Notes under the pieces: generated by a model
Database searches by the model: none
What the model was told of the DNA's origin: nothing
What the model saw: only the letters and a program-made list of their open reading frames with translations
Translations under genes and position numbers: made by a program
DNA from: Podarcis vaucheri
Taxonomy: Eukaryota
Length of the DNA: 64,000 bases
Assembly (NCBI GenBank): GCA_965113315.1
Contig: OZ220365.1
Strand: one strand, 5' to 3'
In this document: positions 43,250 through 63,223 of the stretch, piece by piece
Layout of the letters: each line of letters begins with the position of its first letter
Numbering within the stretch: position 1 is the stretch's first letter

Positions 43250-44240
43250 AAGGTGCTTTCCTTGAAGGAAGCCGCCACGGCGTTTGAGCGGGGAGAGAGA
43301 AACGCGCACAAAGAAGGAGGGCAAAGCCCATATTCGAAAACCTCAATTCTAGCTCCCCCCCCCCGCACCCCGCCTCCTCCTCCTCCAGACGCGGCTGCTA
43401 ATCTGCTTCCGTGACGTCGCCCCTCATGGCAGCCAATGAGCTTGTGCTAAGGGGGACCTGGTACCGGCGGGAGGGGCGGGAGCTCCTCCTCCTCCTCCTC
43501 TTCTTCTAGATGAGAAGCAGCAGCAGCAGCCCCGGCCGAGCAGCGGATTGCTGGCAGAGGCGTCTGGAGGGGTCGGACGTAGCAGGCCGAGGAGAGGCGA
43601 CGGGGCTGGGTCCGCGGAAGAGCCATGGGGAACACCGTGGCTCGGGAGGATTTCGAGTGGGTTTATACGGACCAGCCGCACGCGGACCGGCGCAAGGAGA
43701 TCCTAAGTAAGTGCGCACTTTCGCCGCCTGCCGCTCCCCTTTTGGTCTCGTCTTCCTTTCTCTCCCCCGTTTCGCTGCGATGCCTTTTTTTGGGCGAAGG
43801 CGCTCGAGTCCTCCTTCTGCCCGCTCCTTGGCTCCCGAGGAGGCCGGGCGTGGCGGGCAGACGCCTCCCGGTCTTGCTCCCGGCCTCCGCCCTTGGCGCC
43901 CCGCACCGACGCCTCTTGTCTTCGGAGGAGGAAGCCCCGGCATTGGCTTTCTCGGCGGAATTCCCCACCCGGCCGACGGCGCTCCCTCCTTTGGGTCTTG
44001 GGTGATGGGGAGAGGAGTTCCCAGGGTTGGAGGGGAGCGAGCTGCCAACATCTGGAGAGACGCAGTGCGTCACATCCGAAGGCCTGGGGCCGGCCACCCG
44101 TTACAAGCACGTTGCTGCTTTCCTTTCCCTTGTCCCCCCGGCACGCCGCTTTTTCTCTTTTCAGTTTCGAAATCTGCCTGCGCATAATATGCGGGGAGGT
44201 GGTTCAAAGCGACCTTGGTTAACTGAGGACTTCGCCATGC
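43250..44240. promoter_or_regulatory. DEGS1 copy A CpG-island promoter with CRE/ATF-like site, CCAAT box and GC box
   Basis: CpG-rich; TGACGTCG at 43412-43419, CCAAT at 43433-43437, GGGGCGGGA at about 43473-43481. Confidence 0.7.
43625..43706 (+). CDS. DEGS1: Sphingolipid delta(4)-desaturase DES1, copy A, coding exon 1
   Basis: GCCATGG Kozak; [27 protein letters not shown]; GTAAGT donor; 82 nt. Confidence 0.96.
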
Positions 44241-47443: not shown

Positions 47444-48186
47444 GTAAACACCCAGAAATAAAAACTTTGATGAAACCAGACTACAACTTGATCTGGATAG
47501 CTACACTGATGGTCCTTGCACAGCTAGTTGCCCTTTACCTAGTTAAAGATTTGGAGTGGAAATGGGTTATATTTTGGTCATATGTGTTTGGCAGTTGTCT
47601 TGATCATTCCATGACTCTGGCTATTCATGAGATAGCCCACAACAGTGCCTTTGGCAATTGTAAACCTCTGTGGAATCGATGGTTTGGAATGTTTGCCAAT
47701 CTCGCACTTGGCATCCCATACTCTGTATCCTTCAAGAGATATCACATGGATCACCATCGTTATCTTGGCGGTGAAGGAGTTGATGTGGACATTCCTCTTC
47801 CCATTGAAGGATGGTTTTTCTGTACCCGTCTTCGAAAATTCTTTTGGATTATTCTCCAGCCCCTATTCTATGCTATTCGGCCTCTTTTTATTAATCCCAA
47901 ACCAATCTCTCGACTTGAAATAATGAATTTGTCAATTCAGTTTCTCTTTGATATTATCGTATACTATGTCTTTGGAGTAAAATCACTTGTCTACCTGATA
48001 ACAGCAGCTGTGCTTGGGCTAGGCTTGCACCCTATTTCAGGACACTTTATAGCCGAACATTACATGTTTTTAAAGGGATATGAAACATATTCCTACTATG
48101 GTCCGCTTAATAAACTTACATTCAACGTTGGCTACCATAATGAACACCATGACTTCCCTAATGTTCCTGGGAAAAACCTTCCACTG
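47444..48186 (+). CDS. DEGS1: DEGS1 copy A, coding exon 2 (all three histidine boxes)
   Basis: Pyrimidine tract and CAG acceptor; HEIAH, HMDHH and HNEHH boxes; DES1-type NSAFGNCK after box 1; GTGAGT donor; 743 nt. Confidence 0.97.
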
Positions 48187-49801: not shown

Positions 49802-49948
49802 CTGAAGAAAATGGCCCCTGAATACTATGAACATCTGCCACAGTATAACTCCTGGGTAAAGGTGCTTTATGATTTTGTGATGGATGACACTATCAGCCCT
49901 TATTCACGCATGAAAAGGCATTTAAAAGGTGAAGTGAAATTGGAGTGA
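49802..49948 (+). CDS. DEGS1: DEGS1 copy A, coding exon 3
   Basis: TGCAG acceptor; [48 protein letters not shown]; 82+743+147 = 972 nt = 323 aa. Confidence 0.96.
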
Positions 49949-57159: not shown

Positions 57160-57500
57160 CCTCCAGGCAGGGCCGCTAATGGGCTTCTGTGACGTCACCG
57201 TTCCCTGTAGCCAATGGTTTTTGGGACGTGGGGTCGGTGGGCGGGAAACCATCCTTCCCTACCTGGCGGCGGGCGCGAGTGTGTGGAAACGGCGCCGCCG
57301 GCGAGGAAGGAGCCATGGGCAACGCTGTGGCTCGAGAGGATTTCGAGTGGGTTTATACGGACCAGCCGCACGCGGACCGGCGCAAGGAGATCCTGAGTAA
57401 GCGCGCGCCTTCAGGCCCTCCCCGCTCCCCTTTGGGGGTCTCGCCCCACACGATGCCTCGGTTGACGAAGGCGCTCTCGAGTCCCCTTCTCTCTCCGACC
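57160..57500. promoter_or_regulatory. DEGS1 copy B promoter: perfect CRE and CCAAT box, small CpG island
   Basis: TGACGTCA at 57190-57197 and CCAAT at 57211-57215, the same 21-nt offset as in copy A. Confidence 0.7.
57315..57396 (+). CDS. DEGS1: DEGS1 tandem copy B, coding exon 1
   Basis: GCCATGG Kozak; [27 protein letters not shown]; GTAAGC donor; 82 nt. Confidence 0.95.
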
Positions 57501-59989: not shown

Positions 59990-60635
59990 TCTCAAAAAGA
60001 GCCTCACACAGAGCATGTTACAGTAATCTAGTTATGAGTGGTGATCAAGCTGTCCTTTTCCAGGAAAGGGCATAGTTAGTGTAACTGCTTCTTGTCATGG
60101 AGGCTATCTGAGTCTCCACTGACAGATGGATCTAAGAACATCCCAAACTATCTACCTCTTCTTTCAGAGGGTGTGCAACTCTCTACAGAACTGGTAATTT
60201 CTCAAGATCCCATACCTGGAAGGAACTTACCCACAAATTTAATTTCAGTTGGTTTGTCACTCAGCCCACCACCGTCCAGAAATATCAAAACCTCTTCTGA
60301 TTTGGTTGTAACTGAGAAATAGAACTGCATGTCATCAGCATACTCTTAATGACCACTCCCAATAGCTTAATGTAGATCTTAAATAGTACTGGGGACAAAA
60401 ATTGTCCTGTGACACAATGGCTTGTGGTGGACACACCTATAATCTCCTAATGTCATTCTCTGAATCCTGCTCTGTAATGAGTGGAACCAGTGTGGAATTG
60501 CACCCCAGCTCATGAAGATGATCCAAGAGAACAACATGGTTGATCGTATCAAAAGTCACTGCGAGATCAATAGGGTTGCAGTCCCCTTGTCTATCTCCCA
60601 AATATGGACCTCTGTCAGGGCAACTAAGGCTGATT
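59990..60635 (-). mobile_element. Old L2 fragment in DEGS1-B intron 1
   Basis: Plus-strand GTCATCAGCATA (minus-strand YADD) and TTACAGTAATCTAG (minus-strand LDYCN) remnants; paralog of 46905-47215. Confidence 0.7.
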
Positions 60636-60879
60636 CCATCCCCTAACTTAGCCTGAACCATTATGGCAGTGGTGCTGTTGTTGTGCCTGTACTTCATTCA
60701 TGTGGATTTTACATTAGACTGCAGAGTTGTAGTAAAGCATCCTGTATGTATTCAAACTTTTAACATGTATATAGGCTTGTATAGAAAGTAGAATCCAAAT
60801 GATTGTGGCATGATCTTCAAAGAGCATTGTCTATTGACAGCTGTTATTTGAAACTTTATCTCTCTTTTTCTCCCAACAG

Positions 60880-61622
60880 GTAAACACCCAGAAATAAAAA
60901 CTTTGATGAAACCAGACTACAACTTGATCTGGATAGTTACACTGATGGTGCTTGCACAGCTAGTTGCCCTTTACCTAGTTAAAGATTTGGAGTGGAAATG
61001 GGTTATATTTTGGTCATATGTGTTTGGCAGTTGTCTTGATCATTCCATGACTCTGGCTATTCATGAGATTGCCCACAACAGTGCCTTTGGCAATTGTAAA
61101 CCTCTGTGGAATCGATGGTTTGGAATGTTTGCCAATCTTGTATTTGGCATCCCATACTCTGTATCCTTCAAGAGATATCACATGGATCACCATCGTTATC
61201 TTGGCGGTGAAGGAGTTGATGTGGACATTCCTCTTCCCATTGAAGGATGGTTTTTCTGTACCCGTTTTCGAAAGTTCCTTTGGGTTATTTTTCAGCACTT
61301 CCTCTTTGTTATTCGGCCTCTTTTTATTAATCCCAAACCAATCTCTCGACTTGAAATAATGAATTTGTCAATTCAGTTTCTCTTCGATGTTATGGTATAC
61401 TATGTCTTTGGAGTAAAAGCACTTGTCTACCTGATAACAGGATCTCTGCTTGGGTTAGGCTTGCACCCTATTTCAGGACACTTCATAGCTGAACATTACA
61501 TGTTTTTAAAGGGATATGAAACATATTCCTACTATGGTCCGCTTAATAAGCTTACGTTCAATGTTGGCTACCATAATGAACATCACGACTTCCCTAATGT
61601 TCCTGGAAAAAATCTTCCACTG
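60880..61622 (+). CDS. DEGS1: DEGS1 copy B, coding exon 2
   Basis: CAG acceptor; three intact His boxes; open frame; GTGAGT donor; 743 nt. Confidence 0.96.
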
Positions 61623-63076: not shown

Positions 63077-63223
63077 CTGAAGAAAATGGCCTCTGAATAC
63101 TATGATCATCTGCCACAGTATAACTCCTGGACAAAAGTGCTTTATGACTTTGTGATGGATGACACTATCAGCCCGTATTCGCGAGTGAAAAGGCATTTAA
63201 AAGGTGAAGTGATACTGGAGTGA
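63077..63223 (+). CDS. DEGS1: DEGS1 copy B, coding exon 3
   Basis: TTTCTTTCTTTCATTATAG acceptor; [48 protein letters not shown]; completes a 323-aa product. Confidence 0.95.

Follow-up and report, generated by a model that had tools for sequence, protein, structure and literature searches.

The window analysed here, a 64,000-nt stretch of Podarcis vaucheri contig OZ220365.1, contains two complete three-exon DEGS1 genes arranged in tandem on the + strand and named copy A and copy B (Table 1). Both have 323-codon open frames with GT/AG splice sites, and their proteins are 93% identical. A genome search returned four DEGS matches, comprising A, B, a DEGS2-like exon and a further DEGS-like exon, the latter two on other contigs. 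Exon 2 of the DEGS2 gene looks intact. The fourth DEGS-family exon (L004:1501-2241, minus strand) belongs to a 'DES2-like' type that is also present in other reptiles, amphibians and fish; it has 62% identity to A and retains P167 and Y170. A third tandem DEGS1 copy was considered and rejected, as only two matches occur on this contig and none lies in the 29 kb downstream. Among the sequencing runs listed as containing B, none is recorded as RNA. Runs that we guessed to be RNA contained 0.47-0.60 of the sampled words of B, but as 0.45 of B 31-mers also occur in A, these shares are uninformative on B.

Table 1. Features of the tandem DEGS1 genes, with positions numbered along the window.
Feature	Position	Strand	Remarks
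DEGS1 copy A, coding exon 1	43625..43706	+	82 nt, ATG start, GT donor
DEGS1 copy A, exon 2	47444..48186	+	743 nt; three His boxes; canonical P167, Y170
Copy A codons 157-171, counterpart of the island	47830..47874	+	157 and 161 are A-side changes
DEGS1 copy A, coding exon 3 and stop	49802..49948	+	
DEGS1 copy B, coding exon 1	57315..57396	+	Unconverted; 4 silent and 1 replacement against A
Copy B intron 1, 3' end	60323..60879	+	Closer to A; likely within conversion tracts
DEGS1 copy B, exon 2	60880..61622	+	743 nt, open frame, AG/GT splice sites
Copy B codons 115-116, second paralog-diagnostic island	61140..61145	+	A115V, L116F; predicted neighbour of the 163-172 helix
122-nt run identical in A and B, 5' of the island	61144..61265	+	0 differences at ~28 silent sites; likely conversion tract
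Divergence island, copy B codons 157-171	61266..61310	+	Main finding
B-derived core, codons 163-171	61284..61310	+	7 replacements; P167H at 61296-61298, Y170F at 61305-61307; predicted helix 156-177
75-nt run identical in A and B, 3' of the island	61310..61384	+	Likely conversion tract
Copy B codons 220-275 (H223-H263, His box 3)	61455..61622	+	Unconverted; 10 silent, 0 replacement
DEGS1 copy B, coding exon 3 and stop	63077..63223	+	6 silent and 6 replacement steps against A

Judged by its descent, domains and histidine boxes, copy B is a DEGS1. In Pfam the full-length B ortholog P0125 scores 87.1 bits against FA_desaturase (cut-off 29.7) and 70.6 bits against Lipid_DES (cut-off 23), and the exon 2 protein of B in the window scores 78.5 bits against FA_desaturase. 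Twelve family-invariant columns hold when the B orthologs are aligned, including H89, H93, H128, H131, H132, H233, H259, H262 and H263, and the pocket residues F124, D143, H223, H228 and E232 are kept in B. In a tree of 53 selected rows, constructed without DEGS2 rows, B is nested in a lacertid clade (100/100) within squamate DEGS1, and it carries none of the DEGS2-type states at the 18 columns by which 25 named DEGS2 proteins can be told apart from 40 named DEGS1 proteins. B therefore has the three-exon layout, 323-aa length and predicted fold of vertebrate DEGS1 (sphingolipid delta(4)-desaturase; PF00487 FA_desaturase, PF08557 Lipid_DES), but it differs in having neither P167 nor Y170, in altered residues at 165, 169, 171 and 115-116, and in having an activity that is only predicted.

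Exon 2 differs between A and B at 35 of 743 nt, and 12 of the 35 differences lie inside codons 157-171, where nine amino acids are replaced (A>B: L157F, F161L, I163V, L165F, P167H, L168F, F169L, Y170F, A171V). The comparison confirms the 12 differences and nine replacements given in the initial annotation, together with the six differences in the preceding 386 nt of the exon. Codon 159 is the only wholly silent one, as had been stated, but when mutational steps are counted there are three silent ones among the 12, since codons 165 and 168 were each hit twice. The identical stretch described on the 3' side of the cluster also exists, although it extends for 75 nt from the last difference (74 past codon 171) and not 72. 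When 24 replacements were randomised over 323 codons, nine fell within a 15-codon window in 1 of 200,000 trials (p ~5e-6). Comparison with outgroups shows that the seven changes in 163-171 and those at 115-116 are derived in B whereas 157 and 161 arose in A. An assembly artefact was rejected, since the same B segment occurs in database proteins from four other lacertid assemblies. Smaller clusters reported at 115-116, 198-199 and 215-217 are all present, but only 115-116 separates A from B across species. As determinants, 198-199 was discarded as private to the A of this genome and 215-217 as labile and freely varying. Copy A of this genome acquired I198 and I199 (47953-47958), L157 and V217 recently, as these residues are missing from the A models of P. 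muralis, P. raffonei and P. lilfordi.

The proposal that this segment was protected from gene conversion is supported by the pattern of silent divergence and by comparison across species. Between A and B, pS in the unconverted regions is 0.21 for exon 1, 0.25 for codons 220-275 and 0.19 for exon 3 (pooled 0.22), while in the homogenised tracts it is 0.037 in codons 29-113 and 0 in both 117-156 and 172-195, giving silent deficits against the pooled value with binomial p of 0.0002, 0.0009 and 0.014. Within codons 157-171 pS is 0.31, at the unconverted background level (p 0.84). Intron mismatch between the copies is 6.5-10% in the two blocks directly before exon 2 and 17-25% in six blocks that do not adjoin its 5' side, and G100 is common to both P. 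raffonei copies and found in none of the other lacertid sequences compared. The uneven silent and intron divergence and the shared G100 indicate that the duplication is old and that much of exon 2 has been homogenised. The island is old divergence embedded in gene-converted sequence, and gene conversion is likely to have made the long identical runs.

This is the known pattern of a peak of divergence under gene conversion, described in an excerpt of PMC3924837 for human red/green opsin exon 5, in which tandem paralogs are conversion-homogenised except around functional substitutions, where orthologs are closer than paralogs. Homogenised flanks between the lizard paralogs are found in three tracts, and in the island orthologs are closer than paralogs in five of six gene-pair sets (the window, three Podarcis and Lacerta), Zootoca being the exception. 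The functional effect is established for the opsins whereas a functional effect in the lizards is inferred, and the lizard arrangement differs from that of the opsins in having a main island of ~27-45 nt inside one exon plus a second one of 6 nt, which is predicted to contact the main island once the protein is folded.

The comparison with other species covered 15 of the 19 lacertid cluster members. B in the window matches the P. muralis B model at every one of the 317 positions compared, and among the cluster members listed the B-type segment occurs in P. muralis, P. raffonei, P. lilfordi and Lacerta agilis with 0-1 differences at the nine positions 163-171. Eleven sites (115, 116, 161, 163, 165, 167, 169, 170, 171, 281 and 312) separate A from B in all five gene pairs, that of the window included, and nine of them fall at 115-116 and 161-171. 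Podarcis is sister to all other Lacertini, with a crown age of 37.6 Ma and earlier estimates of 15-47 Ma (PMC6733905, in part). As the island is common to Podarcis and Lacerta, its age is placed at about the Lacertini root.

The Zootoca B ortholog has canonical A-type residues at 115-116 and 165-171 in both database versions. It was assigned to B by its B-type exons 1 and 3, and the B clade has support of 99/93. On the Lacertini species tree this A-type segment is probably a secondary loss by conversion from A, and, judging from these proteins, at least one lineage can do without the island. The two versions of the Zootoca vivipara B protein (P0130, P0136) differ from each other at 142 and 158-163, and they have their own changes, T85S and I88G, just before His box 1. 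The rodent DES1-like copies described below are also altered at 85-88, and 85 covaries with 167 and 220; T85S/I88G is possibly a second route to the same pocket.

Several features of the lacertid entries were observed in passing. The Lacerta agilis A (P0003) and B (P0128) proteins are named in the database 'isoform X1' and 'isoform X2' of one gene but match the two separate tandem genes, so the annotation may hide the duplicate. The B database models P0132 (P. muralis, 360 aa) and P0134 (P. lilfordi, 359 aa) have a long alternative C-terminus and an upstream extension, respectively. Both lacertid copies have L146, P147 and I148 (47797-47805 in A, 61233-61241 in B), positions at which T/A, D/N/E and, invariably, F are found in the 40 named DEGS1 orthologs. 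This change is lacertid-wide, adjoins the conserved D143, P145 and E149, and either predates the duplication or was spread by conversion.

The initial annotation had also suggested localized positive selection on the segment, for which the support is indirect. Replacements are in excess, with replacement to silent steps of 9:3 in the island and 7:20 in the other unconverted regions (Fisher p=0.006, window picked post hoc), and an island pN of 0.26 against 7 replacements per ~306 sites in the unconverted background. Pairwise dN/dS, however, is about 1 and not >1 (0.8 for 157-171 and 1.1 for 163-171, on 10 and 6 silent sites in a window picked post hoc). The ratios of 9:3 and 7:20 indicate that escape from conversion alone is insufficient to explain the island replacements. 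Two counter-explanations raised in the annotation were not borne out. Gene-wide relaxation of B is absent, with 10 silent and 0 replacement changes in codons 220-275 and only 7 differences in 317 positions between window B and Lacerta B, where the A orthologs have 15. Nor is the segment hypervariable, as columns 165-171 have a conservation of 0.88 against a mean of 0.79. Both copies are under purifying selection at codons 220-275. A pseudogene reading of B is ruled out by the open frame, the splice sites and the silent to replacement ratio of 10:0. The best reading of the island is that it is likely to be a selectively kept change of the substrate pocket.

P167 and Y170, both lost in B, are otherwise near-invariant in canonical DEGS1 and DEGS2. 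We compiled a canonical set of 166 proteins (DEGS1, DEGS2 and DES2-like, named and unnamed), from which 17 lacertid DEGS1 and 58 rodent DES1-like entries had been set aside post hoc by name or cluster. Y170 occurs in 166/166 and P167 in 165/166 of this set, both residues are present in 40/40 named DEGS1 orthologs and 25/25 named DEGS2 proteins, and among the 145 distant family representatives that span this region, 134 have Y170 and 80 have P167. Copy B departs from this conserved feature of helix 156-176, having H167 and F170 instead. DEGS2, a bifunctional desaturase/C4-hydroxylase, is likewise a DEGS paralog with altered product specificity but, unlike B, it keeps P167 and Y170.

A comparable loss is seen in the rodent DES1-like duplicates (mouse 9130409I23Rik/Degs1l, muroid and Perognathus), extra DEGS1 copies in which Y170 is lost from all 56 entries of at least 150 aa (I in 22, V in 16, L in 16, W in 2). 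Position 170 is the largest departure among 140 conserved columns in these sequences; F165 occurs in 54/56, A171 is replaced in 56/56, and both Perognathus copies have H167, the same P167H change as lizard B. The muroid copies form one clade (99/95), Perognathus has supports of 88/42 and 90/83, and the rodent copies nest among mammals, which makes their origin independent of the lizard copy. The 56 sequences are redundant (isoforms and close species) and represent one or two origins on the tree, so that with the lizard copy there are two or three events. P167H, Y170F and L165F each need one base change, making convergence mutationally cheap. The rodent copies differ from lizard B in their independent origin, in being far more diverged, and in extra pocket changes, as they also alter E232, F124 and H223, all kept in lizard B, and have I, V, L or W rather than F at 170. 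The Perognathus sequences P0122 and P0333 lie on a long branch (0.32) and combine H167 and W170 with changes at H223, H228 and E232. No activity assay of the rodent duplicates was found in the parts of the literature examined.

AlphaFold2 models of the A ortholog P0129 and the B ortholog P0125 both have a mean pLDDT of 94.9 and an unbroken helix at 156-176/177, and the folds are indistinguishable at the reported level. A fold search matched membrane diiron enzymes (8xks_K, Z 18.0, rmsd 3.9, 281 aligned; AlkB, Z 15.2; SCD1, Z 6.3). A sequence search of the PDB gave no matching chain, and a profile search gave only AlkB at E 0.15. Mean-field covariation used 275 proteins without the lacertid and rodent duplicates, a shallow and weak alignment (Neff ~120). 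It paired 170 with 127, 228 and 229 (ranks 58-60 of 25,425) and with 124; 167 with 220, 186 and 85 (ranks 7, 19 and 38); 166 with 86 (rank 13); and 116 with 172 (rank 25). A drug-docking passage on human DEGS1 lists Tyr170 and Ala171 with Tyr120, Phe124, Leu175, Phe229, Asp143 and Glu232 (PMC12436506), and the modelled ceramide head-group contacts given in a portion of PMC10696257 are His128 and Glu232 at the end of a hydrophobic tunnel. On the weak covariation and the one docking passage, residue 170 would lie near the active site. Both lizard islands and Zootoca position 85 are predicted to lie together in that neighbourhood. By a helical-wheel estimate the conserved face includes 170 (25 degrees), has 167 on its margin (85 degrees) and excludes 165, 168 and 171, and the pocket therefore cannot be faced by all nine changes. 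In human DEGS1, L175Q, which lies where this helix ends, increases Km 2.5-fold, from 2.41 to 5.99 uM (Table 2 of PMC10940770), and N113D abolishes activity according to the same excerpted source. Literature searches on Y170 and P167, and on the determinants that distinguish DES1 from DES2, gave no mutagenesis of these two residues among the papers listed.

We propose, with a probability of roughly 0.55, that B is an old intact tandem duplicate whose fixed pocket changes have been kept by selection despite conversion and give it a different lipid preference. The evolutionary half of this explanation is well supported and we hold it with considerable confidence; the biochemical half, in which helix 163-171 would act as a specificity determinant, is an inference. 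Y170 is predicted to face the active-site pocket by F124, Y127, H228 and F229, where Y170F would remove a hydroxyl. P167 would lie one helical turn away, against 85, 186 and 220, and P167H would give the lipid-channel wall a bulky polar side chain. The change at 115-116 may be a neighbouring, compensating one, with the adjacent residues repacking. B would thus be a diiron desaturase that remains active but accommodates its substrate in another way, with a different chain length, head group or register. Any conversion tract spanning the island would restore the A state in B, and such tracts are likely to be purged by selection, which apparently failed once, in Zootoca.

Other explanations of the island were weighed against this proposal. 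B may be a weakened or non-catalytic copy, with dihydroceramide desaturation lowered or abolished and no new substrate, kept for dosage, tissue tuning or a non-enzymatic role. Loss of a tyrosine that is invariant in the canonical set could simply be harmful, the nearby human changes N113D and L175Q abolish or cut activity in the excerpt of PMC10940770 cited above, and the B gene reverted in Zootoca is not evidently lost. We nevertheless consider this doubtful, since the 12 family-invariant residues and F124, D143, H223, H228 and E232 are retained, the His-box-3 region has changed only silently, and the island is fixed in Podarcis and Lacerta though conversion could restore the A state. A neutral origin is also conceivable, in which constraint was relaxed early after duplication and the local mismatch then blocked conversion, with no new function selected. 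The dN/dS near 1 and the loss of the island in Zootoca are compatible with it, and exon 1, codons 220-275 and exon 3 are unconverted too, so escape is not unique to the island. With the replacement to silent ratio so different elsewhere, however, such relaxation would need to be confined to one helix; the B orthologs differ at only 0-1 of the nine core positions, albeit over few sites and at low lacertid divergence; and the same column is the most-changed conserved one in the rodent duplicates. We regard this origin as unlikely, slightly more so than a weakened enzyme.

That B has become a DEGS2-like C4-hydroxylase making phytoceramide is very improbable. A slight displacement of the substrate may be enough to turn desaturation into hydroxylation (PMC10140171, in part), and a KEGG-based speculation in a passage of PMC12049063 ties the mouse duplicate to phytoceramide. 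Against this, B has none of the 18 DEGS2 states, DEGS2 itself keeps P167 and Y170, and an intact-looking DEGS2 exon 2, as well as another DEGS-like gene, is already present in the genome. A link between B and femoral-gland lipids was also considered, and the literature search gave no supporting paper among those listed.

Returning to B as a selectively kept desaturase with altered lipid preference, a broader and quite speculative possibility is that loss of Tyr170 with a reshaped 163-171 segment is a recurrent escape route by which the desaturase comes to act on another lipid or bond position, lacertid B and rodent Degs1-like being independent members of an unrecognised activity. If true, the lizard pair would isolate the switch to about nine residues.

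The evolutionary pattern is a clean new example of a known one, and its mechanism is not new. No paper on the lacertid DEGS1 duplicate was found in the literature searched, which omits most subscription journals, and the mouse duplicate is mentioned once or twice per paper in the portions of the literature found. The DEGS1 gene is linked to human disease (leukodystrophy HLD18) and its product is a drug target; as no solved DEGS1 structure was found, the basis on which it selects its substrate is poorly mapped. Through conversion, the lizard pair amounts to a controlled experiment set up by nature, with 11 diagnostic sites across species, nine of them in two patches predicted to be adjacent. 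A swap between A and B could test the role of Y170 and P167 in specificity and would point to what the mouse Degs1-like gene, in which the same tyrosine is lost, may do. Copy B is a real, undescribed variant of a known enzyme, and the convergence with rodents makes DEGS1 specificity directly testable.
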